A stretch of 32,000 bases of DNA from Candidatus Nanosynbacter lyticus (GCF_000803625.1 NZ_CP007496.1:450001-482000); one strand, 5' to 3'; counted from the stretch's first letter, positions 11,396-27,930 are shown. Made by a program: numbers and translations. Notes: a model not told the origin generated them from the sequence alone.

Positions 11396-11427
11396 ATATT
11401 CTGTAAAACCGCCGGAAATACCGACGT

Positions 11428-11463
11428 CCCCGCACTATCACAGTGCGGGGTTATTCCTTTTCT
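11428..11463 (+). terminator. Rho-independent terminator of cassette B
   Basis: The hairpin is CCCCGCACT-atcac-AGTGCGGGG, followed by TTATTCCTTTTCT. Confidence 0.7.
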
Positions 11464-11478
11464 GGATTCTGGAGCAAA

Positions 11479-12501: not shown

Positions 12502-12534
12502 ATGCCCTCCCCGTTAGATATTTCGCTTTAGCTT

Positions 12535-12563
12535 TTCTTAATTATACTACAAAGTTGTATAAT
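12535..12563 (+). promoter_or_regulatory. Putative rel promoter, leaderless arrangement
   Basis: TATAAT at 12558-12563 is followed by AAATAT and then the ATG at 12570. The -35 is weak (TTCTTA) and there is no SD. Confidence 0.45.
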
Positions 12564-12569
12564 AAATAT

Positions 12570-14087
12570 ATGACGCGCGAAGAACTGCTATCAGTAGCCG
12601 AGCAAAAGTACGACGAAGTGCCAGTGTTGGTCTTGGCAAGCGCGGTTGACTATGCGACAGAAAAACACGCTGGACAAAAACGCAAAAGCGGTGAGCCATA
12701 TATCAATCACCCCCTGGCAGTGGCCGAGATTTTGATTGAGTGGGGCATGGACATCGACACGGTGGTGGCGGGTGTGCTACATGACACGGTCGAGGACACC
12801 GACGCGACGCTGGATGAACTGGAGAGTTTATTTGGACGCGACGTGGCGTTTTTGGTGGATGGCGTGACTAAGGTTTCGCAGGCACGTGCTGGCATGCGTA
12901 GTCTGGACAGCTATTTGCCACACACCAAGGACAATTTAACTAAATTGATGATCGCAGTCGGTGAAGACGTGCGGGTGATTATCATTAAACTAGCAGATCG
13001 CTTGCACAATATGCGGACGCTGCAGTTTATGTCGCCGGAGAAACAGAAGAAAATTGCTCGCGAGACGATCGAGGTGTTTGCACCGCTGGCGGACCGATTG
13101 AATATGGGGCGGGTACGCGTGCAGCTGGAAGAATTGAGCTTCAAATATTTGATGCCAAAAGATTTTCACCGCACCAAGAGTTTGATGGACAGCCGATTGA
13201 AAAAATCGCAGCGAAAACTGGATCGTGTTCGCCGTGAAGTTGAGGCGCGACTAAAGGAAGAAAAGCTGGTTTTCCAGATGGACGGCCGCGTAAAAAGCGT
13301 CTACAGCCTGTTTAAAAAGCTCGATAAGGTCGGCGATATTGATAAGATTTATGATTTGATCGCCCTGCGAGTCATTGTCGATGATTTGTCGACAGGCTAT
13401 TTGGTATTAGGAATTCTACACGATATGTATCAGCCGATGTACGAGCGAATCAAAGATTATGTCGCCAATCCCAAGCCAAATGGCTACCAAAGTCTACACA
13501 CCACCGTGCAAACGCCGAGTGGGCAAATTGTTGAATTTCAAATTCGCACCAAAGAAATGCACGAATACGCTGAGCGTGGTTTGGCGGCCAGCTTCCACTA
13601 CAATGAGCAGAAGTTAACCGATGCGTACAAAAAAGGTCGTATGGGTGCTATGCCAGCAGATTTGTCATGGATTCGTGAGCTTCAGGAAGCGGCAGCATTG
13701 GCTGGCGAAGGCAAACGATTTGATTCTAATAAGTTCCGCATGAAATTGTTCTCAGACCGCATTTTCGTGTATTCTCCGAAAGGCGATATTTACGATTTGC
13801 CGCGCGGTGCCTTCCCGCTAGATTATGCCTACCGCATTCACTCCGACATCGCGGCACACGCCAGTGGTTTCAAAATCAATGGCGTCATGAAGCCATTTAC
13901 CTATCATTTGCGGCACGGCGACACCATAGAAGTGTTGACCAATAAATCCGCCCACCCGAAGCCGGATTGGCGCGAACTGATCATAACGCCTCACGCTAAA
14001 GACAAGCTGCGTTTGCAATTGTCGCGTAGTGGTGGCATCTTGCAACAATTGACCGGCGGCGTCTCGTCACTGTTTCGGCATCGATAA
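12570..14087 (+). CDS. rel: Bifunctional (p)ppGpp synthetase/hydrolase, short form (HD-SYNTH-TGS)
   Basis: The HD motif HDTVEDT, synthetase motifs (ALRVIV, YQSLHT, EFQIRT) and a TGS region (IFVYSPKGDIYDLPRGAFPLDYAY) are present. I moved the start to ATG 12570, because the tracked upstream 30 codons overlap the gap start and promoter. The result is 505 aa. Confidence 0.9.
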   Translation: MTREELLSVAEQKYDEVPVLVLASAVDYATEKHAGQKRKSGEPYINHPLAVAEILIEWGMDIDTVVAGVLHDTVEDTDATLDELESLFGRDVAFLVDGVTKVSQARAGMRSLDSYLPHTKDNLTKLMIAVGEDVRVIIIKLADRLHNMRTLQFMSPEKQKKIARETIEVFAPLADRLNMGRVRVQLEELSFKYLMPKDFHRTKSLMDSRLKKSQRKLDRVRREVEARLKEEKLVFQMDGRVKSVYSLFKKLDKVGDIDKIYDLIALRVIVDDLSTGYLVLGILHDMYQPMYERIKDYVANPKPNGYQSLHTTVQTPSGQIVEFQIRTKEMHEYAERGLAASFHYNEQKLTDAYKKGRMGAMPADLSWIRELQEAAALAGEGKRFDSNKFRMKLFSDRIFVYSPKGDIYDLPRGAFPLDYAYRIHSDIAAHASGFKINGVMKPFTYHLRHGDTIEVLTNKSAHPKPDWRELIITPHAKDKLRLQLSRSGGILQQLTGGVSSLFRHR

Positions 14088-14118
14088 TCAACGGTACAAT
14101 CTTGTAGGCGGAATATAA

Positions 14119-14239
14119 AAAACAATATCACCCTCATCTCAGGGGCCGTGACGGGCGCGAAAGCCCCGTCAGCCGAACGCCACAGGCTGACCGTAGGTCA
14201 CCTGTAAAGAGTACTCTGAGTGAGGTGTGATATTGTTTT
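14119..14239. ncRNA. Unclassified highly structured 121-nt element (candidate small RNA, complex bidirectional terminator or MITE-like repeat)
   Basis: A closing stem of 24-26 bp (14119-14144 with 14214-14239) encloses two hairpins. One is 14444-14474 with a GAAA tetraloop and the other is 14182-14205. The element lies between convergent gene ends, and the strand is undetermined. Confidence 0.4.
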
Positions 14240-14254
14240 GTTGCGTCGATACTC

Positions 14255-14788
14255 TTACGCTTGCTCGTTCCAGCGAGTGATCGAATCGCGGATGATTTGC
14301 TTGGCGCGTTCAACATCACCAAAGCCCTTGACAACTGTCGAACCTGGCTTCTTCATATCTTTGTAGTGGTTGAAATGATGCTCAATTTGCTTGAGGAGCT
14401 GCGGCGGCAAGTCTTCCAACGAATTGATAGCATCACCAGTATTGCGGTCATCAGCTGGCACTACGATCACCTTGTCATCAACCTCATCATCATCAACAAA
14501 CTCCAAAACACCAATGACCTTTGCTTCCATAAAAATACCTGTTGTCAGTGGCTGGTCGGTGATGATTAAAGCATCCAATTCGTCGCCGTCCTCGTCCAAT
14601 GTCTGCGGGATGAAACCGTAGTTGGTTGGCTTGGCGAAAATTGCTGGCTCAACGCGGTCCAGCTGCATGACTGCCAGCTCACGGTTCCATTCAATCTTAT
14701 GGTTTGAGCCTTGCGGGATCTCAACGACAACATTCACGATGCCGTTTTCTACGTCACCAGGTGTCAAAATTTGGTTAAAGTCTGCCAT
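14255..14788 (-). CDS. ppa: Inorganic pyrophosphatase (family I)
   Basis: The 177-aa ORF has the DEDGDELDALIITD motif and typical family I PPase length. Confidence 0.93.
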   Translation of the reverse strand: MADFNQILTPGDVENGIVNVVVEIPQGSNHKIEWNRELAVMQLDRVEPAIFAKPTNYGFIPQTLDEDGDELDALIITDQPLTTGIFMEAKVIGVLEFVDDDEVDDKVIVVPADDRNTGDAINSLEDLPPQLLKQIEHHFNHYKDMKKPGSTVVKGFGDVERAKQIIRDSITRWNEQA

Positions 14789-14791
14789 AGT

Positions 14792-15724
14792 TTACTCCTC
14801 TCTGGCTTTTTCTTGTAAATATTCACGAATTTGCATTGCCGCCACTGCGCCCTCGCCGACTGCCGAAGCAATTTGCATGGTTGCACCCGAACGCACGTCG
14901 CCCGAGGCAAAGACGCCTGGGATGTTAGTGTGCAAATGTTCGTCAGTGACGATGTGCCCGCCGAGATCTAGTTCAACATCTGAGTCAGCCAAGAACTGCG
15001 TGTTCGGGATGAGGCCGATAAAGACGAACAGACCGTCTGCGGTAAACTCTTTTTGCTCACCGTTTTGGGTTGATTTGACGCCGTAGAACTTGTCATCTTT
15101 GACGATAATTTCATCGGTTGTCGCACCGATATGGACGGTAATCTTGCCCTCATCGACATACTTTTGCAGCTCTTTTTGCAGGACATCGCTGGCGCGTAAT
15201 TCGCTGCGCACCAGCAGATCAATGTGGCTAGCATAGCGAGTCAAAAAGATCGCTTCCTGGACTGCCGAGTTGCCGCCGCCAACGACGATCAAGCTCTTGT
15301 CGCGGTAAAACGCTCCGTCGCACGTCGCACAGTAATGCACGCCGCGGCCGTACAATTCATCTTCGCCCGACACGCCCAACTTGCGGTGATTTGAACCAGT
15401 AGCTAGGAGCACCGATTTGGCTCGCACCGGCTGGCCATCGATCGTCAATTCCAACTCGCCGTCAACTTGCTTGAGTTCCGTAACGTCGCCATACTCGATA
15501 TCCGCACCGAACCGCTCAGCCTGCTGCTGCAACTCTGATGCCAGCTTCATGCCAGTTACACCCTCAGCAAATCCTGGGTAGTTGTCAATTTGGTCAGTGA
15601 TGGCCGCCATGCCACCGACCACGCCGCGCTCGTACAGTGTCGTCGGCACATCTTCGCGCGATAGATAAATTGCAGCCGTGAGCGCGCTTGGACCGGCACC
15701 AACGATGATAACTTCTTTAGACAT
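14792..15724 (-). CDS. trxB: Thioredoxin-disulfide reductase
   Basis: The 310-aa ORF has GAGPSALTAA, the CATCDG redox centre and GGGNSAVQEA. Confidence 0.95.
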   Translation of the reverse strand: MSKEVIIVGAGPSALTAAIYLSREDVPTTLYERGVVGGMAAITDQIDNYPGFAEGVTGMKLASELQQQAERFGADIEYGDVTELKQVDGELELTIDGQPVRAKSVLLATGSNHRKLGVSGEDELYGRGVHYCATCDGAFYRDKSLIVVGGGNSAVQEAIFLTRYASHIDLLVRSELRASDVLQKELQKYVDEGKITVHIGATTDEIIVKDDKFYGVKSTQNGEQKEFTADGLFVFIGLIPNTQFLADSDVELDLGGHIVTDEHLHTNIPGVFASGDVRSGATMQIASAVGEGAVAAMQIREYLQEKAREE

Positions 15725-16394
15725 TTAACCCCCTTGACCTATAATACTGCTTGATAATTCCTGGCATTTCTGGCTGTGGAATATCTGCTGGCTTTTCGAT
15801 AGCCATTACCACAAATTTCAGCGGCGAATTAGCAGGAATCTTATCGCCCTGAGCCTGATTTCCGTACGCCTTATCCGCTGGAATTGTCAATTCGCGTACA
15901 CCGCCAATCTTCATACCAATCAGCCCCTCTTTCCAGCCTTGAATCACGGCAGTTTTCGCTGGACCATTCATATTAAGCGGTGCTTTTAACTTTCCATCAG
16001 CAATTGATTGATCAAAAATCTCCCCCTTAGGGTTCCAGCCAATATAATAAACCGCCAATTTAGTATCATCTTTGACTTCTGCTCCGTCACCCTCCAACAA
16101 ATCTTCTTTGCCGAGTTCTTTAACACTACCAGCCTCAAACGCACCGACTCGCGAACTGAACTCAGAAAATTTACTGTAGTATTTTTGGCTCAGTTCGGCA
16201 GCCTGAGCTTCTACTTTTTTCTTATGCTCATCGTTGGCTTTAGTGTACTCATCCTGAGCCTTCTTCAATGCCGCTTGATCTTTAGCATCATTGCCCGGCT
16301 GCACCATCATGGCGATAAATCCGCCAACAGTTCCTAAAAACATCATGCCGGCAATCACCCAAATGCCTATCCTTTGGCTTTTACTTGTTGCCAT
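15717..16394 (-). CDS. FKBP-type peptidyl-prolyl cis-trans isomerase, N-terminally membrane-anchored
   Basis: The 225-aa ORF has an N-terminal TM helix. Its C-terminal FKBP domain carries VYYIGW...GWKEGLIGMKIGGVRELTIPADKAYG. It has an AAGGAGG SD. Confidence 0.88.
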   Translation of the reverse strand: MATSKSQRIGIWVIAGMMFLGTVGGFIAMMVQPGNDAKDQAALKKAQDEYTKANDEHKKKVEAQAAELSQKYYSKFSEFSSRVGAFEAGSVKELGKEDLLEGDGAEVKDDTKLAVYYIGWNPKGEIFDQSIADGKLKAPLNMNGPAKTAVIQGWKEGLIGMKIGGVRELTIPADKAYGNQAQGDKIPANSPLKFVVMAIEKPADIPQPEMPGIIKQYYRSRGLNV

Positions 16395-16418
16395 AATCCT
16401 CCTTTATTTACTTCTCCA

Positions 16419-16447
16419 ATTATATCAATTTTGGTCAAGTACAACAA
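16419..16447 (-). promoter_or_regulatory. Putative promoter of the FKBP-trxB-ppa operon
   Basis: The minus strand reads TTGTTG-17nt-TATAAT, about 24 nt upstream of the ATG. Confidence 0.45.
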
Positions 16448-16457
16448 TCACTCGATA

Positions 16458-19025
16458 CTAAGCTTGCACCGCACCGAGTTCGGCCGCCGCAGCAACAATC
16501 TCCTCGATTATCGGCGTGATGTCTTTGTCGGTCAGCGTACGCTCTAGGCTGGTAAACTTTATATTGAAAGTAATAGTTTTCGTCGAATTATCGTCCTCTG
16601 GCTGGTAAATTGAAATTGGCGTAATGACAATATGCAGCTCTTGGTGGCTATCTATAACATTCTTAACACGGTCATGCACCGACGCATAATTGACCTGAGC
16701 TGGCACTTTGAGCGAAATGTCACGGCTGGTCGATGGGTAACGACTGAGCGGTTGGTAATGACTACCTCGCTTGACATAAACGGCCTCTAATCCAGCTGTA
16801 TCCAGGCTCGCCGCCGCTACGTACGCTGGCAACTTGAAACTCTTGATGACAGACTGCTTCAGCTCACCAACCATACCGATAAACCGCCCGTCGGTTGTCT
16901 CGACTAGCGCACTGCGCGACTGGTCAAACGGTGCCGTGACTGGGAAATTACGTTCCTGTTCAATCGGCTTAAATACCAACTCGGTACCAAGATCATGCGC
17001 CAACTGTTCAACCAAGCGACGAATTTTGTAAAATGGCGCGCCCGTGCCTGGCTTTTTGGCGGCGTAAACGATGTCGGTGAACTGGCTGGCTTCTGGCAGG
17101 CCATCTTCATCCAAGCCATGCATTTTGATATGCCCCTTGCCCATTTCAAACAAGGCAAATTCATCATGGCCAGCCTTGATGTTGGCGTGAACTTTGTCGA
17201 GCAAACTTGGTAACACCGTCAAGCGGTAATATTGCAAATCAGGGCTGAGGGCGTTTGATAATTTATACGCCTGAGCAACGTCCTGCTCGGCGTTTTTCAG
17301 GATGCGTTCGTGAATGAAACTGTAGGTCAAGACTTCATTGACACCAGCACGTGACAGACTTTGGCGAACGGCGTTTTTTAGTTCGCGACGCAGGTTTTTC
17401 GGTGTTGATTTGATGCTGCGACGCGGCAATTGACGCGGTAGTTTATCAAAGCCATACAGACGGCCGACTTCTTCGACAATATCCTCTGGTAGCTCAAGAT
17501 CGGTACGCCAGAATGGCGCGATTACTTCAAATTGATAAGGTGTATTTGGCTCGGGTTCCTCATGTGCCTTAATTTCAACATTCTTCAGAATACGGCAGAT
17601 TTCCTGCGGCGAAAATTCTGTGCCCAAACGTTCATTCACAAAGGTACTTTCCAACACTAAAACGCCAGTCACTGCGCCCCAATCGAAAATCGAAATGGTT
17701 TCCTTGCCGGCAGAGCCAAATGTAACTCGCGAATCGTGCTGCACGACCATCAGGCGATCGTTGCGCTTGTCAAACACTTCACTCGCCTGCACGCCGCCAA
17801 CCATACTCATCAGCTGCTTCAACACGGCAGCATTTTGCAGCGGCGACTGACCCTTATTAAATCGCGTGAGTGCGTCGGTAAAAATACCGTGTCGCATAGC
17901 CGTGCGGCGCAGCGCATACATGTCAAAATTAGCACATTCGAGGACGATGTTTTTGGTCTCACCCGAAACCTCGGTGTCGGTACCGCCCATAATTCCCGCC
18001 AGGCCGATCACGCCCTCGCCATCAGCTATGACGATGTCGTCACTCGTCAACTCATATTCTTTGCCATTGAGCAAACTGACTTTCTCGCCATCACGAGCCA
18101 TCCGCGCCCCGAGTGTAGACCCGCGCAATTTGTTATAATCATAGGCGTGCGTCGGTTGCGCCGTCATCAGCATGATGTAATTTGTGGCGTCAACGATGTT
18201 GTTGATCGGCTTGCCGCCCATTACCACCAGCTGGCATTGCAGCCACAGCGGACTGGGCTTGACCTCGATATCTTTAATCGCTACCGCCATGAAGCGCGGC
18301 ACTAATTCTGGCACGTCGTTCGTTACTGTTAGCTCCAAACCCTCAGCACCAGTAAATTGTTGCTCTGATTTATACCACTCAGGACTGACAAACTGCTGAT
18401 GAAAAATCCCAGCAATCTCGCGTGCCACGCCGAGCTGCCCGAAACAATCCGGACGGTGCGTAAACATTTTATTTTCAATGTCCAGTACGTAATCGTCCAG
18501 CCCAAACGTTTCCGCGAAACCAGCACCCGCCGTTAGCTCAACGCCCGCCGGCACGTCGCGTTCATGAATCTCAATAATTCCCTCGTGATCCGTACCAATC
18601 GCCAACTCATCAGCCGCCGCCAACATGCCCTGGCTGAGCACACCACGCAGCGGCCGCGCATCCAGTACAAACGGCTCGTCGTTATCAAAACTCGCCGGCA
18701 CCGTGCTTTTTGGCGGTAGCCAAATCGCCCACATATCCGCATGCACATTCGGCGCGCCGCAGACCACCTGCACTAGACCATTGTCATCACGCGGCACATC
18801 GGCGACCGCACCGCCATCATCGATCTTGGTCACACTCAGCCGATCAGCGTCAGGATGCTTGACACATTCAACCACCCGAACGATTCGTGCACCACCATAT
18901 TTGGCTTTCAGGTCGATCACTTCTTCGACGCCACCAAGCTGCTGATTGACCCGCGCCACCAACTCGTCCACTGGCGGCAATTCAAAATTAATCAATTGTT
19001 TGATAAGATTTAGGCTGACTTTCAT
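16458..19025 (-). CDS. pheT: Phenylalanine--tRNA ligase beta subunit
   Basis: The 855-aa ORF has an N-terminal tRNA-binding domain (HPDADRLSVTKIDDG) and B3/4, B5 and C-terminal anticodon-binding-like regions. Confidence 0.95.
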   Translation of the reverse strand: MKVSLNLIKQLINFELPPVDELVARVNQQLGGVEEVIDLKAKYGGARIVRVVECVKHPDADRLSVTKIDDGGAVADVPRDDNGLVQVVCGAPNVHADMWAIWLPPKSTVPASFDNDEPFVLDARPLRGVLSQGMLAAADELAIGTDHEGIIEIHERDVPAGVELTAGAGFAETFGLDDYVLDIENKMFTHRPDCFGQLGVAREIAGIFHQQFVSPEWYKSEQQFTGAEGLELTVTNDVPELVPRFMAVAIKDIEVKPSPLWLQCQLVVMGGKPINNIVDATNYIMLMTAQPTHAYDYNKLRGSTLGARMARDGEKVSLLNGKEYELTSDDIVIADGEGVIGLAGIMGGTDTEVSGETKNIVLECANFDMYALRRTAMRHGIFTDALTRFNKGQSPLQNAAVLKQLMSMVGGVQASEVFDKRNDRLMVVQHDSRVTFGSAGKETISIFDWGAVTGVLVLESTFVNERLGTEFSPQEICRILKNVEIKAHEEPEPNTPYQFEVIAPFWRTDLELPEDIVEEVGRLYGFDKLPRQLPRRSIKSTPKNLRRELKNAVRQSLSRAGVNEVLTYSFIHERILKNAEQDVAQAYKLSNALSPDLQYYRLTVLPSLLDKVHANIKAGHDEFALFEMGKGHIKMHGLDEDGLPEASQFTDIVYAAKKPGTGAPFYKIRRLVEQLAHDLGTELVFKPIEQERNFPVTAPFDQSRSALVETTDGRFIGMVGELKQSVIKSFKLPAYVAAASLDTAGLEAVYVKRGSHYQPLSRYPSTSRDISLKVPAQVNYASVHDRVKNVIDSHQELHIVITPISIYQPEDDNSTKTITFNIKFTSLERTLTDKDITPIIEEIVAAAAELGAVQA

Positions 19026-19044
19026 ACTAGTTACTAGTATACCA
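19024..19044 (-). promoter_or_regulatory. Putative pheT promoter (extended -10) overlapped by a perfect 17-bp palindrome
   Basis: The minus strand reads TGGTATACT-10nt-ATG with no SD. ATACTAGTtACTAGTAT (19024-19040) is a perfect 8-1-8 inverted repeat spanning the -10 to the ATG. Confidence 0.45.
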
Positions 19045-19163
19045 TCTTATCTATAACTATTCGACTTTTGTAAAGCCAAGCCGCAGGTCGGTAATTATTG
19101 GAAATATTCTTTTGCTTTATATTTGGCAATGATATCCTGCTGTTCGGGCGTAAATCGCCGTGA

Positions 19164-19817
19164 TTAGCGCATTTTTTGATAAGCTTTTTTACGCGTCCAA
19201 GTGTCAATATGTCCGTTTTCTAGTTCAGCCAGCGTCAGCTCAAAAAACTGCACCGCCGCCGTAGCGTACAGCCAAGCCAACGCCATTTTGACATAGTAGC
19301 CGTCGTGGGTGATATTTCGCAGTGCGGCAAAAACTTGATCAACATGCAATTCATCCAAAAAATTAGTCATCAAAGAAACCACACCGTAGCGTACCGTCAA
19401 TTCAGCTTCGCTTTGCAAATATTTCAGCGCAAAATCCCACCACGACTCACCAGCAAACCGCCGCTTTTTATCGACAAACACATCAATGTGTGCCCATGAA
19501 TCAACGCGTGGTAAATATTGCTTGGTCAAATCAATCGCCGTCTGATCATCGAGCCGAGCGTGCGTAATCAGCAATCCACACAGCAGCACGTAGTCGAAAG
19601 ATTGGTTCTTCTCTGCTAGCAAATTGCGAATATCCGCTGCACTCATATCAGGCACCAGCTCCCTCGCCAGCCGCCGCAAATCCGGCACCCGCACACCAAC
19701 GACAGGCATATCGGTATTGACGATACGCTTATTAAAGGCGGCATACGTCTCGTTACCCTCAGCGAGCTCCGCCAACTTCATTACAATATCATCATGCATA
19801 TTGCCGCTAGCTTTCAT
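19164..19817 (-). CDS. DNA alkylation repair protein (AlkD-like HEAT-repeat family)
   Basis: The sequence FNKRIVNTDMPVVGVRVPDLRRLAREL is typical of the DNA_alkylation family. The start is uncertain: candidates are TTG 19823 and ATG 19817, 19799 and 19781. Confidence 0.75.
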   Translation of the reverse strand: MKASGNMHDDIVMKLAELAEGNETYAAFNKRIVNTDMPVVGVRVPDLRRLARELVPDMSAADIRNLLAEKNQSFDYVLLCGLLITHARLDDQTAIDLTKQYLPRVDSWAHIDVFVDKKRRFAGESWWDFALKYLQSEAELTVRYGVVSLMTNFLDELHVDQVFAALRNITHDGYYVKMALAWLYATAAVQFFELTLAELENGHIDTWTRKKAYQKMR

Positions 19818-20148
19818 GATCAAACTCGATCCCTAAAACTCCGTATCGTTCCTGGTCTGCTGCAGAATAGAACTCGTTAATCTGATTTTCCAGCCATTCA
19901 ACACTTTCACCGCCAAACTTAAGCAGGTCATTATGAGAAAACAGATCATGAAACGTCGCGTAACGCAGCAACCCAACCACCGTCGCAGTCATGGTTTGCT
20001 CGGGGTTCGTGCGGTTAATAAACATAATCTGATCGCCAAGCTGAATCTTCTGACGCTTCTCGTCATATAGCCGCGACTCGATAGTTTTCTGACCGGAAAC
20101 AATGGCAGCAAATGGCTCAGAGTGAAGCTTAAGTCTATGTGTAGTCAT
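19807..20148 (-). CDS. ASCH domain-containing protein
   Basis: The 113-aa ORF reads LKLHSEPFAAIVSGQKTIESRLYDEKRQKIQLGDQIMF, typical of the ASCH/PUA-like fold. Confidence 0.75.
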   Translation of the reverse strand: MTTHRLKLHSEPFAAIVSGQKTIESRLYDEKRQKIQLGDQIMFINRTNPEQTMTATVVGLLRYATFHDLFSHNDLLKFGGESVEWLENQINEFYSAADQERYGVLGIEFDHES

Positions 20149-20154
20149 GCCGAT

Positions 20155-20163
20155 ATTATAGCA
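20155..20163 (-). promoter_or_regulatory. Putative extended -10 promoter of the ASCH/AlkD-like pair, leaderless arrangement
   Basis: The minus strand reads TGcTATAAT-ATCGGC-ATG. It lies in the 18-nt gap after the ABC ATPase stop, and there is no SD. Confidence 0.45.
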
Positions 20164-20166
20164 GCA

Positions 20167-20796
20167 TCACACCTTCAGCTTCTTATCCTTCAATGTCAGC
20201 ACCACGTCCGCTTGCTTAGCCAGCTGTTTACTGTGAGTGACGACGATGACGCACTTGTCGTTTTCGTGGGCGGCCTGACGCAGGATGTCGATGATGTCGG
20301 CAGCGGTGGTTTCGTCCAGGTTGCCAGTCGGCTCGTCTGCCAAGATAATCGGTGCGGAGGATACCAGCGCTCGACCGATCGCCACACGCTGTTGCTGGCC
20401 GCCGGAAAGTTTCATGACGTTGCGGTGAATGTGATCGTCGTCCAAGCCCATGGAGTGCAACGTTTCGTTGGTGGCCTTGGAATTAACCAATTTCAAGTTT
20501 TCCAGCGGCGTCAGATAATCGATCAGATTATAATTCTGAAACACCAGCGAGATATTGTGCTTGCGATGATGCGAATAACCCTGCTCGGCGATGTCTTCAT
20601 CGTCGAACAAAATCTGCCCGCCGGTCGGTGTGTCCAGCCCCGCCAGCAGCCCCAGCAGTGTCGATTTACCAGCACCAGAACTACCGACGATGGCGTAGAA
20701 TTTGCCTTTTTCAAATTGATAATTGATGCCGTTGAGCACATTGCTCGTACCGTCGGCGTATGAATAAATAATATCGCGTAACGTAAGTAATGACAT
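20167..20796 (-). CDS. ABC transporter ATP-binding protein (MacB/LolD-like)
   Basis: Walker [12 protein letters not shown], signature [15 protein letters not shown] and Walker [12 protein letters not shown] are present. Confidence 0.95.
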
Positions 20797-20804
20797 GATA
20801 ACTC

Positions 20805-22046
20805 CTAACTTAATTTTGCTAAAATTTGCTTTGGTGATTGGCGCATGATTGGCGCGGTAGCAGCGATGGCTGACAACAGAACGACCACGTAGCCGAAGGC
20901 GAAAGCTTGCAAGTAGGTCGCTATTGGCGCGGCTTGCACCACGGTTTTTTCTATGCGCTGGCTTTGGTCGGTTTGCGCTGTGAGGGCGGTAGAAATCTGT
21001 GACGAGGCGACCGAACCGACACCGAGCGCGAACACCGAACTAACTGCGGCGATGATAGCGAGTTCCGCCAAGAACTGCCCGATGATCTGCCGCTTCGATG
21101 TGCCGATAGACAGCAAGATGCCAATTTCATGCAAGCGGCCGCGCACCCAGAACACCAGCACCAGCGACAGCACCGCCAACCCTGCCGCGGCTGCGCCGAT
21201 GGTGGCAATCGTCAAGATGTTTTGAATGCCAGCGATGTTTTGGAGAACCCCAGCGAATGCCGCCCCATTGTCAGTCAGACTGAATTTTTTCCAATCGATG
21301 TTTGGTAGGCTTTTGGTACGGTCCGTTAACGACTTCAACTGATGCGGATGTTCGGCAAAATATGTTGCTCGTGTCAGTTGCTTGCTCCCCGTTAGCAGCT
21401 GCGCTGCAGCCAAGTTGGTGATGAGATGATTCTCCGCCATGTCGGACTGCAAGACCGCTGGCTTTTCGCCTTTGCCGCTGAAGATGCCCATGACAGTCAC
21501 CGTCACCCGCCGGCCGTCTTTGGTAATGTCCAGCTTGTCGCCTGGCTTGATGTCATTTTTCTCAGCAAACGTTTTGTGAACCAGCGCCGCGTTTTGATCG
21601 TTCGCCCCCAGATGCTTACCCTGCTCTAGTTGGTAAAATCGACCGGTGAATTCGCCGAGCAAATTGCTCTGTGTCGCTCCCGTAACTTTTGCTTCGCCAG
21701 CCACATTAGCGTCCAGCTGCACGCCGCTGCCTGCCGTGTCGATCAATTGTTTGCCTGGCAGTCCCGCGGTAGTTTCTGATTGGAAATTATGCGCTTTGAC
21801 CTTGTCCAGGAGCTGCACCCGCTGCGCGATGTCCATCGGCACCTCGCCCGATGGCTGCTTGCTGGCGATACTAAAGCCGGCGCGGATGTTTCGCTCGACT
21901 GATTGCTTCAGCTGCGCCATCGTTTGTTGCACTGTCAGCGTACCGATCAGCAGCGTGAAAATCAGCGTCATGATCAGGGCGATGGTCAGGCTGCGACGCC
22001 GTTTGCGCGTCACAGCCGTCCAGGCTCGTTTGATAATCGTCATCAT
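20805..22046 (-). CDS. ABC transporter permease, FtsX/MacB-type
   Basis: The 413-aa ORF has an N-terminal TM helix, a large extracytoplasmic domain and three C-terminal TM helices. Confidence 0.88.
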   Translation of the reverse strand: MMTIIKRAWTAVTRKRRRSLTIALIMTLIFTLLIGTLTVQQTMAQLKQSVERNIRAGFSIASKQPSGEVPMDIAQRVQLLDKVKAHNFQSETTAGLPGKQLIDTAGSGVQLDANVAGEAKVTGATQSNLLGEFTGRFYQLEQGKHLGANDQNAALVHKTFAEKNDIKPGDKLDITKDGRRVTVTVMGIFSGKGEKPAVLQSDMAENHLITNLAAAQLLTGSKQLTRATYFAEHPHQLKSLTDRTKSLPNIDWKKFSLTDNGAAFAGVLQNIAGIQNILTIATIGAAAAGLAVLSLVLVFWVRGRLHEIGILLSIGTSKRQIIGQFLAELAIIAAVSSVFALGVGSVASSQISTALTAQTDQSQRIEKTVVQAAPIATYLQAFAFGYVVVLLSAIAATAPIMRQSPKQILAKLS

Positions 22047-22052
22047 TCGCCC

Positions 22053-23435
22053 CTAGTCCACTTCAGTTAGTAATTCTTTTGGCGTTGACTGGGTAATCGG
22101 TCGAGAGGCCAGGAGCACCGCGATGATAATCACCGCTAGCCCAGCACTCCACACCGCCAACAGATCCGTCGGTTGTACGCCAACCGTCACCTTATCCAGC
22201 GTGCGCGATGACGTCACCGAGTCAGCATCAGCACCGAGCGACGCACCGTTCAGCGAACTACTAGCCTGACGTGTGGCATTCTGCGCCGCCTGCGACACCA
22301 CGTGATCGCCCATTTGTTGCGCAATCAGCCCTGCGGTAAAGTACGATGCACCGAAGCTCAACACCGCGATCATCACCAGCTCAGCGATGTATTGCAACAC
22401 AATCTTTGACTGCGGCACGCCCGTCGCCAAGAGCACGCCCGCTTCGCGCTTGCGCTCGTTCATCCACAAGTACAGCACCATGCCGATCACCGCGACGCTG
22501 ACCAGCGCCGTTGCCCACAACATACCGTCGATCAAGCCGTACACGCCGTTCACTGCACCAGTCACGCCAGCCAGCTCCTGGCTATTCTTATTCAATTGAT
22601 ACTTTTGCCAATTGACCGACAGTTTATTTGCCCGCGCCATCACCTCATCTAACTGTTTGGTGCCCTTGGTAAAGAACGTAGCGTCCTGGTAAATCTCATT
22701 TTGTTCAGTGTACGCATTCAACTGGCGAGTCGTCGTGAGGTCAGTCAGGAACAAATTCTCGAACAGCTCCACCTGGTACGTCGCCTGCTTTGGGTTTTTA
22801 CCGTTAAATATACCGACGATTTCTACCTCGACCTCGTCCTTGGATGGATGTTCATTGTCGGTGTCGTATTGGTTGGCCTTCAGCTTAATTTTACTGCCCA
22901 GCTTCAGATTGTTGGCCTTGGCAAAGTCTTCGTGCACCAAAATCTTGTGCGAATCGTTCTCGGTGATGTGCCGACCAGCGATGAGCTTGAGCGACTCAGC
23001 ACGGAACTTTTTCTCGGACTCAGATTTATTGACACCGATGATGGTAGCGGCGTTGCCAAACTGCTTGTCTTTCTCGGCATCATAACCGCTGCCACCACTC
23101 GGTAGTGGCACCAGTTTGGTATTGATAAAATCGACCGTAGCGTTCTGGCGCTTGACATAGTCTGTCACGCCCTCCAGATTCTTCACCGCGTCGATATCCT
23201 TGTTCGACACCGTTCCCGAGCCGCGGGCCGTTCCCGGATTGGTGCGCGGATTATTGCCCAGTGTGAAGCCGGCCTTGAGCGTTTTATCCAGCGACTGCGC
23301 CGCCGCGTCGGTCGAATGCTTGATGGCAAATCCACTCAGCATAATCGTCGACATACACAGCAAAATCGCCAGCAAAATCAGCGTTTTGAGTTTTTTCCTG
23401 GTGATATATAACCAGGCACGTTGTATAAATGACAT
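22053..23435 (-). CDS. ABC transporter permease, FtsX/MacB-type (paralogue of the downstream permease)
   Basis: The 460-aa ORF has the same topology as its neighbour and an AAGGAG SD. Confidence 0.88.
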   Translation of the reverse strand: MSFIQRAWLYITRKKLKTLILLAILLCMSTIMLSGFAIKHSTDAAAQSLDKTLKAGFTLGNNPRTNPGTARGSGTVSNKDIDAVKNLEGVTDYVKRQNATVDFINTKLVPLPSGGSGYDAEKDKQFGNAATIIGVNKSESEKKFRAESLKLIAGRHITENDSHKILVHEDFAKANNLKLGSKIKLKANQYDTDNEHPSKDEVEVEIVGIFNGKNPKQATYQVELFENLFLTDLTTTRQLNAYTEQNEIYQDATFFTKGTKQLDEVMARANKLSVNWQKYQLNKNSQELAGVTGAVNGVYGLIDGMLWATALVSVAVIGMVLYLWMNERKREAGVLLATGVPQSKIVLQYIAELVMIAVLSFGASYFTAGLIAQQMGDHVVSQAAQNATRQASSSLNGASLGADADSVTSSRTLDKVTVGVQPTDLLAVWSAGLAVIIIAVLLASRPITQSTPKELLTEVD

Positions 23436-23520
23436 AGATCTCCTTTCTTGGTTCTATGCCAGTGTAGCAGGGGTGTGTGAAGGGAATGTGAAATGGAGAT
23501 CTGTCTAACTCTGGGTAATT

Positions 23521-25854
23521 CTACTAACTCTAGAAAACGGTTATCATCATCTTAATATAGAGGCTATGAAGAGATTTTTTTAACTCTCCGATATAAATTA
23601 ATCAATTCATTGATATCCATATCAACAAGAGGTTCATACATAAAAGCATTAAGGTGTATATTTTCTGGGGTCATAATATTTACCTCATCAATCACTTTCA
23701 CAGTATCGTTACTGCACTTAGTCTGTTTAAATGCATCAGAGAGGCTCCTCGTTTGATTTTTCTGAGCCTCCAATTGATCAAGAAATTCTTGTGAAGAGCC
23801 GCTTTCTGACCCTTCACGACCCCAAGATATTTGACCGCTATATTCTTTTAACTTACGCTTCATATATTCTTCCGCTCTATGTCTAATTGCAATAGCCAGA
23901 ATGATTTTATATTCAAGTAAGGATTTTTCGATGGTTATTGTTTCAGCTTCTGTGTAAATTGCGTCGACTATTGGAGTGTCTGTATTGATATTTATAAAAT
24001 CACTCCTACCTAAGTGTCTCTCGTAGATGTCTTTAAGTGACTGAAATGTTATGTCAGATGTTTCTTCTTTATTATGTAACAATTTAGTTAACTCACCGTA
24101 ATCTGCATCGTCTTTCCCTTTAGTATATTCAATTAGATTGCGCACTGCGGGAATAAGCGCAATTACATGAGCGAGCGTCATATTGTCCTTCCAGTGGTCA
24201 ATTGGATTTCTCTGATAAAATTCTTTTCTCAATATAACCTCGCCATTGTTCAGCTCTGCGTGCAAATGAGCGTATCTAGGTAAGCCAAGTCGACTAGTAA
24301 TCGTTCTATAGAAATCAAAATTATGCGACAAGATAATGAGCTTAAAATTTTTGCAATTTGCCATTTCATATAAATATTCAACAATTGCATACTTATTTTT
24401 ATAGTCAAAAGAATCAGCAATATCATCAACTACTAGTAAAACTTCTTTGTCTGTTCCTGCTAAATCTTTCTTCATTTTCTCAATATCAAAAATAATATTT
24501 AGCAGATATAAGGATCTCTTCTCTCCTTGGCTTAGAGTGTCCTTGATTTCAAGCTCTCCTCTACTGATAGTTTGCTGCCGACCATCTCTAGTAAATACAA
24601 ACTCTACCTGTGGAATATTCTCACCCATAATAGCACTTGTTCCGTTGGCAATTTTCATTTTATACGGCACCGTAAATCGTTCTTCAAAAATTCTTAGCGC
24701 TTCTCCCCAGCGTGTCTTTTCTGGATCTATGCCACCAATCTCATGCCGAAGACTATTCCACTTATCTTTAAGGTTGCTAAACGTGGTATTATCTTTCATA
24801 TAAGATAGCCATAATTGCCTACGTAGATCTTTAAGCTTAGACTCCTTTAGATACTGCACTACATCAGGGTTATTCTCTATAACTCTTCTTAGTACACCAC
24901 CTTTAGCTGTTTTCAAATCTTTCTCTATATCAGTAAAGGCCTTGCTTTGCTTAATCTCTTGTTCAATTCCCTTTACTACATCACTAAAATCTTCAGTTGT
25001 ACGTATTTCTTCCTCGCCAAAAAGTTTTACAAGATTATCGTTTACGAAAAATCCATTATCTTTCAGTGATTTCTCGACATTTTTAAGTTCAGACAGACTA
25101 AAAATACCCTTCTTTAAAAAACCATGTCGTTCATAAATCTCATTACTAGTTTTACAGAATTCTTCAATATTTTCTTGAAACCCTTTTTTCTTAATATATC
25201 CCAGTGTAGTATTATCAAAAATATCCGAATATTTAATTTCCGAAAAATCAATTCCTATACGTCCCTGTATAAGTTCCAACCCCAGTAAGATACTGCCATC
25301 CAGATCAAAATCTTTTACGATCTTTGGCTCTAGCTCACGTACATTCACGCCTTGTATAACTTTTTTAATTTTAAGACCAGAAGCTTTTTCTAAATCTTTC
25401 AATAAGTCGCTTTTTAGCTTGATAACATCTGATATCTTTTCCTTTATAGATTCATCTACCAATAGATCGGCAAGATTACCTGACTGATAAGAGGCCTCAA
25501 AGCTTTTTATCACGAAAACATCTTCTTCTGAAATATCTTTTCCATCGATGGTTATTTTTGCTTCTCCTGGGATATCAAAAATCTCATCTCTAATTTCTTT
25601 TTGCTTTTTATCTTGTATCTTTTTGAAAGTCTTAGCAAATGATGTTTTCATTAAGCCATTTTTCGCATAAATGGCAATTACACTAGTGTCAGAGAAAGTA
25701 AATTCACTTTCCAACTTTTGAATCCCGTAGCAATTAACTAAATCACATTTTATTTTTTCCATTTTATCCCCTCATTTTATATCTTACTTCACTTTCTTGT
25801 TTTCTTTAATAAGATTCGTGGGGCAAGCCATATTTTCTTTTCCAAACTACTAAC
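23521..25854. other. AT-rich compositional island carrying a single gene
   Basis: Hand counts of 60-nt lines give 18/60 G+C at 24421-24480. The flanking genes give 36/60 at 22141-22200 and 32/60 at 26101-26160. The boundaries are approximate. Confidence 0.6.
23564..25762 (-). CDS. ABC/SMC-like ATPase of RloC/PrrC (AAA_13)-like architecture, putative stand-alone defence/abortive-infection protein
   Basis: The 732-aa ORF has a GAGGGG SD and a P-loop-like YAKNGLMKTS (aa 32-41). A K/E-rich helical insertion of about 250 aa follows. It also has the signature LSQGEK (aa 410-415), Walker B VLLVVDDIADSFD (aa 441-453), LSHN (aa 478-481) and a C-terminal domain of about 235 aa. Confidence 0.9.
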   Translation of the reverse strand: MEKIKCDLVNCYGIQKLESEFTFSDTSVIAIYAKNGLMKTSFAKTFKKIQDKKQKEIRDEIFDIPGEAKITIDGKDISEEDVFVIKSFEASYQSGNLADLLVDESIKEKISDVIKLKSDLLKDLEKASGLKIKKVIQGVNVRELEPKIVKDFDLDGSILLGLELIQGRIGIDFSEIKYSDIFDNTTLGYIKKKGFQENIEEFCKTSNEIYERHGFLKKGIFSLSELKNVEKSLKDNGFFVNDNLVKLFGEEEIRTTEDFSDVVKGIEQEIKQSKAFTDIEKDLKTAKGGVLRRVIENNPDVVQYLKESKLKDLRRQLWLSYMKDNTTFSNLKDKWNSLRHEIGGIDPEKTRWGEALRIFEERFTVPYKMKIANGTSAIMGENIPQVEFVFTRDGRQQTISRGELEIKDTLSQGEKRSLYLLNIIFDIEKMKKDLAGTDKEVLLVVDDIADSFDYKNKYAIVEYLYEMANCKNFKLIILSHNFDFYRTITSRLGLPRYAHLHAELNNGEVILRKEFYQRNPIDHWKDNMTLAHVIALIPAVRNLIEYTKGKDDADYGELTKLLHNKEETSDITFQSLKDIYERHLGRSDFININTDTPIVDAIYTEAETITIEKSLLEYKIILAIAIRHRAEEYMKRKLKEYSGQISWGREGSESGSSQEFLDQLEAQKNQTRSLSDAFKQTKCSNDTVKVIDEVNIMTPENIHLNAFMYEPLVDMDINELINLYRRVKKISS

Positions 25855-25910
25855 ATAAAGCAAACCCCGATAATCTATACCTCATTATAACCGCCAATCC
25901 ATTGTCGCCA

Positions 25911-27293
25911 TTAATTAAACCTCACCACAAACCGCATGCCCCGCCCATGCAGTGTGAAATCATAGTCCAGACCCTTGGCGTCGAGTAGCATTTTCACGAT
26001 GTAGAGGCCGATACCACTGCTGTCGGCATGTTGCTTCGCACCATTGCTCCGATAAAACGGATCAAAGATGTGCTGAAGTTGCTGTTTGGTGAGCGGTTTG
26101 CAAGCGTTTTCGATGGCCAGCTCATGCTGGTCGCATGTAATTTTTATCACGCTCCCCGCGTCGCCGTGGCGCACCGCGTTTGATACCAGGTTCGAGATGA
26201 CGTGGCGCATCATGTCGCGGTTGGCACGAATGGTCGTTGGTTCTGTATTAACCTCGAAAGTCATGCCGCACGTTTTTGCCAGCAACACATAATCGTCAAC
26301 TACCTCAGTGACCAGCTTGTCAATCCCCAGCCGCTTTTCCTGACGCAAAGCCTGCTCGGCGACACTGCCAGAACGCAAAACATCATTCACCATCGCCGCC
26401 AAGCGGTCAACCTGTGCCACTGATTCCGCCAGGTACTGATCGCGATTTTTATACTCGCCGATGTTGAGTTGCATGTTTTCCAGCATAATCCTGAGGGCCG
26501 CTAACGGCGTTTTCAACTCGTGCGAGGCCGCGCGGAGGAAGGCGATTTTTTCTTTCTCCAGCTGCGTGATCCGCTTATTTTCATACTCCAGCGAACGAAT
26601 TGTTTGCCATAGATTTTGATAGAGCTCATTAATATTTCGCCCCAGCACGCCAATCTCGTCATGACTATTCACTGGGTAATGCGCGTTCTTTTCCAGCCGC
26701 TGCATGGTCGTGGTCACCGCCGCCATCTGGCGAATCGGCCGCGTCACAAAACGGCTATAAACGTAAGAAAACAGCAGTGCCACCAGCAGCGAACCGAGCA
26801 TGGTATATGGCAATACGTGCAAGGTAGCGAGCTTGGCCTGAGTGACAGGCACCACGTCGGCGAGTAGCTTGACCGTAATCGTTTGGCCTTGGTTGTTCGC
26901 CACACTCCCCTGCCGCAAAATCACCGAGCGCGGATCGACAGTCTGCCCGTCAGCAATTTTCACCACACTGGTGTCAACCGATTTACCACTATCGGTCACG
27001 ATGTTGATCGACTGAAAACCTTGAAAATACTGATTACGTCCGTCAATTGTCAGCGTGATATTAACATTTTTCATCTGAGCAAACTCCTGGCTGAGACGGC
27101 GCATTTCCTCAGTCGATTTACCGCGTAGTTCAGCCACGAGCGCCGTGAGATTGTCCGCCGCCTCGTGCTCTTTTTGCTGCAAATAAAATTGCGGCATCAA
27201 GGTGTAGACCAGCGCATGCACCAGGATGATCAACGCCGCAAACAGGCCGATTGACACCAAAAATGTTTTGGGAAATAACTTAAGCCGCTTCAT
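25911..27293 (-). CDS. Sensor histidine kinase (two TM helices, periplasmic-type sensor domain, HAMP, HisKA, HATPase_c)
   Basis: The 460-aa ORF has the H-box SHELKTPL, the N-box LVSNAVRHG and the G-box SSGIGLYIV. Confidence 0.93.
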   Translation of the reverse strand: MKRLKLFPKTFLVSIGLFAALIILVHALVYTLMPQFYLQQKEHEAADNLTALVAELRGKSTEEMRRLSQEFAQMKNVNITLTIDGRNQYFQGFQSINIVTDSGKSVDTSVVKIADGQTVDPRSVILRQGSVANNQGQTITVKLLADVVPVTQAKLATLHVLPYTMLGSLLVALLFSYVYSRFVTRPIRQMAAVTTTMQRLEKNAHYPVNSHDEIGVLGRNINELYQNLWQTIRSLEYENKRITQLEKEKIAFLRAASHELKTPLAALRIMLENMQLNIGEYKNRDQYLAESVAQVDRLAAMVNDVLRSGSVAEQALRQEKRLGIDKLVTEVVDDYVLLAKTCGMTFEVNTEPTTIRANRDMMRHVISNLVSNAVRHGDAGSVIKITCDQHELAIENACKPLTKQQLQHIFDPFYRSNGAKQHADSSGIGLYIVKMLLDAKGLDYDFTLHGRGMRFVVRFN

Positions 27294-27930
27294 AGCGATA
27301 ACCCACTCCCTTCACCGTGATGATGCAGTCCAGGTGCAATTTTTTGCGCAAGTTTTTGATGTAAACGTCAATCACCCGGTCGAACGGCACCTCGTCATCA
27401 CACCACAACTTGTCAATGATAGCCTGCCGACTCCAGACCATGTTTGGGTTATCGACGAGTAGCTTGAGCAGCTGCACTTCCTTGGGCTTGAGATGTGCGT
27501 CAGCATCATCATAAAATCCCTGATACGCCGCGAAATCCACCGAGGCCAGACCGCGCTGCCACAAGGTCTTTTTGACAGACTGTTGGCGGCGAAGCAAGGC
27601 CCTAATTCGCTTCTCCAAAATCACCAGCGAAAACGGCTTACTCATATAATCATCCGCCAGCTCGTCAAAACTCGCAACTTGCGTCGGCTCATCATGCAAT
27701 GCCGTCAGCATCAGTACCGGCACGTCGCTGGTCTGGCGAATTTGGTGCAGCGTCTCGATACCACTCATCCCTGGTAGCATAATGTCGAGAATAATCACAT
27801 CTGCCCCAGTAGATTTCTCCAGTGCTTCCTCGCCACTGGTCGCTGTCACCACCGTAAAACCGCGCTGGCGGAGGAACTGCTCGGTGCCAGTGCGAACTGC
27901 CGGTTCGTCTTCAACAAGGAGGATGTTCAC
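27280..27930 (-). CDS. OmpR/PhoB-family response regulator
   Basis: The receiver domain has LLVEDEP, ILDIMLPGMSG and SKPF. A winged-helix C-terminus (VKGVGYRY) follows. The GTG start overlaps the hydrolase stop (GTGA). Confidence 0.93.
   Translation of the reverse strand: MNILLVEDEPAVRTGTEQFLRQRGFTVVTATSGEEALEKSTGADVIILDIMLPGMSGIETLHQIRQTSDVPVLMLTALHDEPTQVASFDELADDYMSKPFSLVILEKRIRALLRRQQSVKKTLWQRGLASVDFAAYQGFYDDADAHLKPKEVQLLKLLVDNPNMVWSRQAIIDKLWCDDEVPFDRVIDVYIKNLRKKLHLDCIITVKGVGYRYEAA

Follow-up and report, generated by a model that had tools for sequence, protein, structure and literature searches.

Core defence hotspots, positions between conserved genes that hold different defence systems in different strains, have been described in Pseudomonas aeruginosa (core defence hotspots, cDHS) and in Escherichia coli (defence-island integration hotspots) (PMC10250203, PMC10121019). 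The anticodon nucleases PrrC and RloC join an N-terminal ABC ATPase with an insertion to a C-terminal helical domain, whose residue triads are R320-x3-E324-x31-H356 in PrrC and R-x3-E-x36-52-H in RloC (PMC2610378); the HEPN motif is defined as Rx4-6H (PMC3710099). A second group, comprising OLD, Gabija GajA, PARIS AriA and Septu PtuA, couples an ATPase sensor to an effector. Here we analyse a 32,000-nucleotide stretch of the genome of Candidatus Nanosynbacter lyticus, an oral Saccharibacterium (TM7) (NZ_CP007496.1:450001-482000; hereafter the window, numbered from its first letter), in which an AT-rich segment between a histidine kinase gene and a permease gene carries a single 732-amino-acid (aa) open reading frame (ORF; 23564..25762), here called S46 after the family to which it belongs, PDC-S46. 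Both PDC-S46 as a candidate family and core hotspots as a genome feature were known already. S46, its motifs, the regulatory elements and the kinase, regulator, permease and ABC ATPase genes located below all lie on the minus strand of the window.

The position held by S46 resembles the core defence hotspots in being fixed between core genes, in housing defence systems that differ from strain to strain, and in needing no dedicated mobility genes. It differs from them in belonging to a Candidate Phyla Radiation (CPR) epibiont genome of ~0.7 Mb, where it lies between a two-component system and the adjacent ABC transporter, in mixing defence with small nucleotide-housecleaning enzymes, and in being exchanged as tracts of ~2.6-3.2 kb whose breakpoints fall within the genes on either side. 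Saccharibacteria live as obligate epibionts and have minimal genomes. Only 7.9% of these genomes contain CRISPR-Cas (PMC10746230), a scarcity that would make other defences matter to them.

A hypervariable slot between kinase and permease genes

We compared 80 species-representative loci retrieved with the kinase, all from Saccharibacteria or Nanosynbacter in oral samples, 53 of which are complete. The interval from kinase stop to permease start measures between 767 bp and over 9.7 kb in the 80 loci, with a guanine-plus-cytosine (GC) content of 0.36 to 0.52; the complete loci display 41 gene orders. The junctions are sharp in essentially every species: conservation, as judged by blastn, ends at the kinase stop (25911) and returns at 23496/23497, 61 bp upstream of the permease ATG, which delimits a variable cargo segment (the slot, 23497..25910, to which no strand is assigned). 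These data mark out the region between kinase and permease as a hotspot where accessory genes are hypervariable; S46 itself is found there at 2 of the 80 species loci (L032 and L050). A prediction previously made from the sequence of this stretch had S46 splitting a contiguous minus-strand module of hydrolase, response regulator, kinase, two permeases and ATPase, and proposed looking for kinase and permease side by side in related genomes. The module is composed as described, but the gene is not a one-off insertion, since kinase and permease are adjacent in none of the 53 complete loci and the gap between them is nowhere shorter than 767 bp. An empty site in relatives was accordingly rejected, with even the smallest loci (767-771 bp) holding a 118-aa ASCH-like ORF.

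Recurrent slot cargo includes Ham1 ITPase, NUDIX, ASCH/DUF3850, GNAT-GNAT-ASCH, GrpB, YetF, HU-like and NYN proteins. At least 19 of the 80 loci, moreover, hold a defence gene recognised by PADLOC in the slot, a lower bound because 27 loci are incomplete and only cluster representatives were scanned. This defence cargo (E-values in brackets) is diverse: HamB (2e-65) with HamA (PF08878), together Hachiman, at L069; AbiJ (1.6e-20) at six loci; SoFic (4e-43) at three; an Old/AriA/GajA-like ATPase (9e-51) at two, L080 and L086; PDC-S50 (6e-97) and PDC-S58/ApeA (2e-33) at one each; and a ThsB-like TIR protein (8e-11) at three, L029, L049 and L060.

The three slots with the ThsB-like protein (~2.2 kb, GC 0.36) combine this 177-aa TIR protein with a 204-aa multi-pass membrane protein and a 239-aa Zeta-toxin/AAA_33-like kinase, a three-gene cassette that does not follow the canonical Thoeris arrangement. 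In L068 synteny is broken, with no permease within 10 kb of the kinase; downstream of the kinase, at 11387-21380, core-looking genes for DNA polymerase III delta', an RluD-like pseudouridine synthase, a class I tRNA synthetase and a TPR protein are joined by a PDC-S58/ApeA-like gene. Other cargo lacks any Pfam or PADLOC match, including a 515-aa protein that is the sole occupant of the L021 slot (11387-13126, GC 0.355), and a divergent gene pair, for one protein of 430 aa and one P-loop protein of 242 aa, seen in L017, L055, L062, L022, L014, L056, L030 and L079. A Ppx-GppA/deoxyribosyltransferase-like protein is paired with a P-loop protein in L067 and L089. Such unmatched cargo provides candidates for undescribed systems.

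Composition and lateral exchange of S46

The slot of the window stands apart from its surroundings in composition. Its GC is 0.340 versus 0.490 elsewhere in the window (z = -6.0), and all 495 other windows of that length (2414 bp) reach at least 0.428. The sharp G+C drop that the original prediction had placed over the 732-aa ORF and its flanks reappears in sliding 300-nt windows, which give 0.29-0.41 at ~23450-25850 and 0.47-0.59 on either side; its count of 18 G+C in 60 nt at 24421-24480 is exact on recount, gene averages being 20.4 per 60 nt for S46, 31.9 for the permease and 31.0 for the kinase. The codon shift it noted towards AAA, GAA, ATT and TTT also holds, as all four are, together with GAT and AAT, among the commonest codons of the ORF, whose GC at third codon positions (GC3, 0.289) is the lowest of the long ORFs, the 27 others spanning 0.375-0.677.

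Low GC could in principle reflect amino-acid bias in a gene ancestral to the lineage, and the protein is indeed rich in K, I, N, F and Y (a fraction of 0.342 versus 0.227 in other ORFs); synonymous divergence (dS) among S46 alleles of Saccharibacteria reaches ~0.44, similar to the flanks, which implies that the gene has long been in the accessory pool of this clade. However, GC3 is largely independent of amino-acid content, the gene does not sit at the same position with the same composition in all relatives, being in the slot of only 2 of the 80 species, and its copies are 100% identical in backbones that are 85-96% identical. We therefore consider ancestry in the lineage wildly improbable. 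As a side observation, the Saccharibacteria alleles at L001, L032, L050, L093 and L095 have retained a GC of 0.34-0.35 and a GC3 of 0.29-0.33 despite a dS of ~0.44.

The identity of S46 across diverged genomes carries the case for exchange. The gene is 100% nucleotide-identical in L001 (CP076459.1), L002/L008 and L004/L005, loci in which identity is 89.8-90.5% for the kinase gene (L001 and L004; 89.8% in CP076459.1) or 85.5-96.5% for the two permease genes. Sliding identity reveals a 100% tract from ~26050 to ~23500 in L001, set within 82-95% identical sequence, and one from ~26000 to ~22850 in L004. Breakpoints on the kinase side lie at ~26050-26200 (L001, L004 and L032), and those on the permease side at ~23500-23350 (L001 and L002, the latter near 23500) or at ~22850 (L004), such that the exchanged tracts are short and end inside the flanking genes. 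L032 is a mosaic within S46 itself, running from 100% through 91-94% and back to 100%, and dS is 3.5-5x lower for S46 than for the adjacent kinase gene (0.10 vs 0.52 in L032; 0.15 vs 0.59 in L095). In other lineages the slot contains variants at 89-94% identity, either on their own or accompanied by GrpB and YetF. These results show that S46 is laterally exchanged between diverged genomes, and bear out the horizontal acquisition that had been proposed for it: the gene is found in 2 of 80 species, has a foreign composition, and has its nearest homologues outside Saccharibacteria at only ~48-53% identity. Some of the mosaic patterns come from metagenome contigs, which may be chimeric, a point that tells against exchange; the complete genome CP076459.1 shows the same pattern.

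The 100% tracts, which stop within the 3' part of the kinase gene and the 5' part of the permease gene, together with the low dS of S46, point to cassette exchange by homologous recombination. S46 would accordingly spread as a cassette anchored in these two gene ends, with neither an integrase nor a transposase. Saccharibacteria are naturally competent (PMC10633639), and natural transformation is most plausibly the route. A remnant of a site-specifically integrated prophage, integrative and conjugative element (ICE) or transposon would likewise have a foreign composition, and members of the family do lie near the ends of some IMG/VR contigs. Yet flanking repeats, direct or inverted, amount to short, imperfect chance matches, and the absence of integrase, transposase and tRNA genes that had been noted near S46 was confirmed by a tRNA scan of the window, which found none, and by domain calls, which revealed no integrase or transposase domain among the genes called ~8 kb to either side at the same locus in other genomes; nor were integrase or transposase families detected among the cargo of the 80 slots. 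Furthermore, the module common to the window and L050, where the context differs, comprises only S46 and 17-20 bp on each side, and the breakpoints fall inside flanking core genes, as homologous recombination predicts. We thus regard an integrated-element remnant as most improbable.

Beyond Saccharibacteria, the family yields more than 6000 matches at 90% clustering. Identity falls in tiers, from 85-97% within Saccharibacteria to ~53% in Veillonella, Treponema and Velocimicrobium, an Aerococcus plasmid also lying within the ~48-53% of the nearest outside homologues, and full-length relatives at 31-48% identity are carried by 27 plasmids of many phyla, adjoining restriction-modification (R-M), anti-restriction and conjugation genes. 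The Aerococcus homologue is ICE-like cargo, flanked by dcm and topoisomerase III and, at its opposite end, by a type I R-M subunit; in Providencia, where an F-like plasmid carries the homologue in its leading region, an R-M fragment and an anti-restriction gene are its neighbours; and the Vibrio homologue adjoins a gene for a 1212-aa AAA protein. Homologues can be more AT-rich than their replicons (GC 0.247 vs 0.318 in Aerococcus and 0.386 vs 0.442 in Vibrio). Relatives occur in 1 of 50,697 phage records and 11 of 2.9 million IMG/VR viral contigs, several near a contig end. A phage origin of S46 was rejected, as relatives are rare in phage and viral records and all those found there are at most 34% identical.

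The plasmid relatives bear on whether S46 serves a mobile element, as an addiction or toxin module, a plasmid or ICE exclusion factor, or a factor acting on incoming transforming DNA. The neighbourhoods on the conjugative plasmid of Providencia, beside an anti-restriction gene, and in the Aerococcus ICE-like cargo would fit such a selfish function, as would the 27 plasmids, the 11 viral contigs and a match to a PHROG family, in a host that is naturally competent (PMC10633639). In Saccharibacteria, however, S46 is a lone chromosomal gene, with no mobile backbone, antitoxin-like partner, integrase or repeats, and the gene persists across lineages under purifying selection, which is shown by its dN/dS of 0.12-0.19. 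A selfish function overlaps with defence, phage defence and exclusion of mobile elements not being mutually exclusive, and we judge it rather unlikely, while giving it some weight.

Architecture and putative role of the S46 protein

The S46 protein does not differ from WP_039327591.1 (TM7x_02510), which is annotated as a 'hypothetical protein' in Candidatus Nanosynbacter lyticus and bears the UniRef name 'Protein CR006 P-loop domain-containing protein'. Exactly this protein is encoded on 23 public contigs, each time between the same kinase and permease; among them is CP076459.1, a complete genome of 706,973 bp. A PADLOC search, which had been proposed as a check on a phage-defence or abortive-infection function (PADLOC-DB v2.0.0; reporting threshold E <= 1), matched S46 end to end with PDC-S46 (PDLC05023; E = 1.9e-208, 692.6 bits, residues 1-730 against positions 1-718 of the 719 in the profile), no other model scoring better than E = 0.0025. 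S46 is a member of PDC-S46, and nothing sets it apart at the sequence level. It also matches PHROG 38705, a family of unknown function, at E = 9e-102. In keeping with the 'S' class, whose systems need no partner gene, S46 is a single-gene system, being the sole slot ORF in the window, L002-L008, L095 and L096, with neighbours that differ in other lineages and phyla.

The AlphaFold2 model of S46 has a mean predicted local distance difference test (pLDDT) score of 83.7. When the predicted structure was compared with the PDB by Foldseek, a check that had likewise been proposed, it matched the ATPase heads of cohesin/SMC, Rad50/SbcC, RecF, Septu PtuA and retron ATPases (probability 1.0, E = 2e-5 to 1e-2), with low TM-scores (0.2-0.4) because only part of the S46 chain aligns. 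In the model, the head is of the SMC/Rad50/RecF-like ABC-ATPase fold and spans residues 1-514 (24221..25762), with a mostly helical insertion at ~97-362. Given this fold, S46 might be a housekeeping ATPase for DNA repair or chromosome maintenance, akin to SMC, RecF, RecN or SbcC, and weak matches to SMC_N and RecF would agree with that. The scores are nevertheless far below the cut-offs (24.7 bits vs 40 for Pfam SMC_N, PF02463; 21 bits vs 172 for RecF, which along with a transporter ATPase gave the only NCBIfam matches, all sub-threshold), and Pfam AAA_13 (PF13166) was not reported even at E <= 10. Searches of PDB sequences with the protein and the family profile gave nothing useful, the best being Smc4 at E = 0.12 in the signature/Walker B region. 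Moreover, S46 has no long coiled coil or zinc hook, C11 being its only conserved Cys; its distribution is patchy and strain-variable, and plasmid-borne in other phyla; and the housekeeping families have no extra C-terminal domain. Profile searches thus do not place S46 in a housekeeping family, a role that we hold to be very unlikely.

The conserved motifs of the head were examined in an alignment of S46 with 80 family representatives that are 30-46% identical to it. The Walker A element, YAKNGLMKTS (residues 32-41, 25640..25669), is deviant, with Met38 in place of the canonical Gly before Lys39. Compared with GxxxxGK[ST], it reads A33-x-N-G-x-M38-K39-T40, such that Lys and Thr/Ser are kept and both canonical Gly residues are replaced, by Ala and Met. 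This pattern, Y-A-x-N-G-x-M-K-[TS]-S, is family-wide, with Met in 78 of 81 sequences and Lys in all 81. The remaining motifs follow in canonical order: the ABC signature LSQGE (residues 410-414, 24521..24535), in which L410, S411, G413 and E414 are at least 90% conserved; Walker B and D-loop, LLVVDDIADSFD (residues 442-453, 24404..24439), comprising LLVVDD at 442-447 and SFD at 451-453; and the H-loop His480 (24323-24325). D446, D447, I448, A449, D450, S451, F452, D453 and H480 are each at least 90% conserved in the family.

Residues 515-732 (23567..24220) form a family-specific helical domain, presumed to be an effector or sensor, which AlphaFold2 models well in isolation (pLDDT 89.1, predicted TM-score 0.88). 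It gave no significant Foldseek match in PDB or BFVD (best E = 0.38), and its sole Pfam match was to DUF7051, with E = 0.051. When 1.84 billion cluster representatives were searched, the domain turned up in 976 clusters, solely as the same fusion or its fragments. All full-length matches (~700-780 aa) have it at the same C-terminal position, which indicates that the two-module architecture is fixed. Sixteen of its residues, largely polar ones, are at least 90% conserved (R541, N542, H563, K565, E617, K619, R627, E631, Q670, T671, T698, P699, H703, N705, E710 and D714), a pattern that suggests an active or binding site.

In its overall plan S46 recalls PrrC and RloC: a single polypeptide with Walker A, signature, Walker B with a 'DD..S.D' D-loop, H-loop and an insertion between Walker A and signature, followed by a helical C-terminal domain with a conserved R-x3-E and His, in a strain-variable, defence-linked context. 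S46 might therefore be an anticodon nuclease of this type, in which an ABC ATPase and a HEPN-like tRNase are triggered by phage, the R541-x3-E545 ... H563 arrangement being reminiscent of the PrrC and RloC triads and some family members having a precomputed match to AAA_13 (PF13166). The spacing from E to H is 17, however, compared with 31 in PrrC and 36-52 in RloC, and there is no conserved Rx4-6H motif, no conserved His occurring 5-7 residues after R541, R627, R486 or R491. Nor does S46 have a CxxC zinc hook, profile similarity (in PADLOC, nothing better than E = 0.0025 apart from PDC-S46, and no Pfam match to the C-terminal domain) or a Foldseek match to a HEPN structure. Its P-loop carries Met where theirs has Gly, its insertion is predicted as many short helices rather than the long antiparallel coiled coil of the Rad50-like RloC, and the window contains no linked type I R-M genes. 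Given the differences in spacing, HEPN motif and zinc hook, we take PrrC/RloC as the closest working analogy but not as the family of S46, and we consider an anticodon nuclease of this type unlikely.

A similar comparison applies to OLD, GajA, AriA and PtuA. These belong to the same class of ATPase head, PtuA and PtuA-like retron chains are among the Foldseek matches, their ATPase sensor is coupled to an effector, and an OLD/AriA-like gene fills the very same slot in L080 and L086. In contrast to them, S46 has no Toprim or HNH effector, their PADLOC models miss it (only AbiLi, at E = 0.085), and its C-terminal domain is unrelated to theirs by sequence and by Foldseek against the PDB.

Taken together, the full-length PDC-S46 match and the SMC/Rad50/RecF/PtuA-type ATPase head support, as a prediction, the phage-defence or abortive-infection function that had been suggested from the protein's architecture. 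On balance we favour for S46 an 'ABC ATPase plus effector' mode of defence, in which one polypeptide acts against phages or mobile elements. Lys39, Thr40 and the Walker B aspartates would bind nucleotide in the head, and two heads would dimerise through the signature motif. On sensing a cue of infection, for instance a phage protein or nucleic acid that is damaged or foreign, the ATPase would license the C-terminal helical domain, which would probably act on nucleic acid, and infection would be halted at a cost to the cell. Both the control of the C-terminal domain by the ATPase and the effector chemistry are what we infer from this layout. That the activity is specifically nucleic-acid cleavage appears possible, if somewhat short of an even prospect, with a tRNase resembling PrrC/RloC as an unlikely sub-case.

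Several points weigh against a defence role for S46. PDC families are candidates for phage defence and not validated systems (PMC11514479), and we found no mention of PDC-S46 or TM7x_02510 in the literature. The commonest slot cargo is non-defence (Ham1 ITPase, NUDIX, ASCH, GNAT-ASCH, GrpB, YetF and HU-like proteins), so location in the slot is by itself weak evidence of defence. In the protein, the change from Gly to Met in the P-loop might impair nucleotide binding, and the C-terminal domain, in which no nuclease fold or motif is recognisable, could be a sensor or protein-binding module and not the effector. Finally, S46 may be transcribed by read-through from the kinase operon, since a scan of the coding strand found no terminator-like site between S46 and the kinase or the permease.

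More broadly, we tentatively propose that CRISPR-poor oral Saccharibacteria keep an integrase-free swap slot, set between a two-component system and a regulator-dependent promoter of its ABC transporter, through which single-gene immune modules circulate by transformation and homologous recombination, and that PDC-S46 is one of these modules, with a new effector fold under a Met P-loop ABC ATPase, distinct from OLD/Gabija, Septu, PARIS and PrrC/RloC. We regard this combined proposal as speculative. If it were true, the unmatched slot cargo (clusters C59, C16/C17 and C53/C54) would represent further undescribed defence systems. The locus itself shows that even a genome of ~0.7 Mb sets aside a defined position for fast-exchanged accessory and immune genes, and that they can be swapped by homologous recombination with no mobility genes. 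In the literature we found no description of a Saccharibacteria hotspot of this kind, nor of PDC-S46 in Saccharibacteria, in the CPR or in this slot; we likewise found none of how the slot is laid out between kinase stop and regulator box, of its recombination tracts, of a Met P-loop shared by the whole family or of the orphan fold at the C terminus. PDC-S46 spans ~1000 clusters at 50% identity in many phyla and can be tested directly in a native host, because S46 is identical to TM7x_02510 of the cultivated model strain, natural competence has been turned into genetic tools for Saccharibacteria (PMC10633639), and Xhp1, a phage interacting with TM7x, has recently been reported (PMC13578794). 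The slot is also a practical region in which to search for further single-gene defence systems, and could serve as a naturally neutral insertion site in Nanosynbacter.

Regulatory elements and flanking genes

S46 carries the Shine-Dalgarno (SD) sequence GAGGGG that the original prediction had assigned to it, at 25768..25773 (25773-25768 in reading direction), 5 nt before the ATG and within the module shared with L050 (25779..23544). The promoter-like TTAAAG-17-TAAGAT proposed at the same time is present at 25781..25809, but it is weak: it matches the consensus at 7 of 12 positions, falls under the threshold of the scanner, and is no better than chance. Indeed, the promoter scan of the AT-rich stretch returned 9 promoter-like sites compared with 10.0 +/- 3.3 in shuffled sequence, which is the chance level. 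An Rfam scan of the window gave no matches.

Downstream of the slot, the first permease is preceded by a 61-bp leader (23436..23496) that is conserved in 53 species-level loci. It reads, in order, CATTTCACAttcccTTCACA, ~6 variable nucleotides, TGcTACACT, AAGGAG and the ATG, and thus comprises two direct TTCACA repeats placed 11 bp apart (TTCACA-N5-TTCACA; 23487-23492 and 23476-23481), an extended -10-like element (TGcTACACT, 23461-23469) and the permease SD (AAGGAG, 23440-23445). Repeats, -10-like element and SD are each at least 95% conserved in the 53 loci, and the spacer between repeats and -10 varies. The spacing seen here, with the direct hexamers 11 bp apart and ending 9 bp before an extended -10, is that of activator sites of the OmpR/PhoB type. 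By this geometry, TTCACA-N5-TTCACA is probably a binding box for the adjacent OmpR-type regulator. Directly past the slot, the transporter operon would then retain a conserved promoter of its own, one that probably depends on the regulator; if so, the slot lies between two transcription units, and cargo would be tolerated there because insertions leave the coupling between sensor and transporter intact.

The genes on either side were assigned by Pfam. On the kinase side lie the histidine kinase (25911..27293; HAMP, HisKA and HATPase_c), whose 3' end is the left recombination anchor, the OmpR-type response regulator (27280..27930; Response_reg and Trans_reg_C) and, upstream of the regulator, an alpha/beta hydrolase. 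On the other side are the first FtsX permease (22053..23435), whose 5' end is the right anchor, a second FtsX permease (20805-22046) and the ABC ATPase (20167-20796). Across species, the first permease is 94-99% identical at the amino-acid level with a dN/dS of 0.02, and the kinase is 88-93% identical with a dN/dS of 0.07-0.09.

The flanking genes vary in some of the compared loci. The hydrolase, which in the window is co-oriented and 319 aa long, lies on the opposite strand and is 332 aa long in L093-L096 (for example, L093 2060-3058), the loci with S46 alleles at 89-94% identity. In L001 (CP076459.1; 6466-7852 and 12012-13619) the kinase is broken into four ORFs of 77, 145, 127 and 100 aa, the second permease has 310 aa rather than 413, and an ABC ATPase gene is not called, while S46 is intact and 100% identical; either the sensor/transporter module is decaying in this genome or the assembly contains errors. 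A second variable spot lies just downstream of the ABC ATPase gene, at ~19800-20170 of the window, which holds an ASCH gene there. In L094 (11889-13781) it is occupied by a 630-aa OLD-family nuclease (AAA_15 and OLD-like TOPRIM), and in L002 (9113-11369), L004 and L005 by a 347-aa unknown gene on the opposite strand together with a NUDIX gene and a small ORF.

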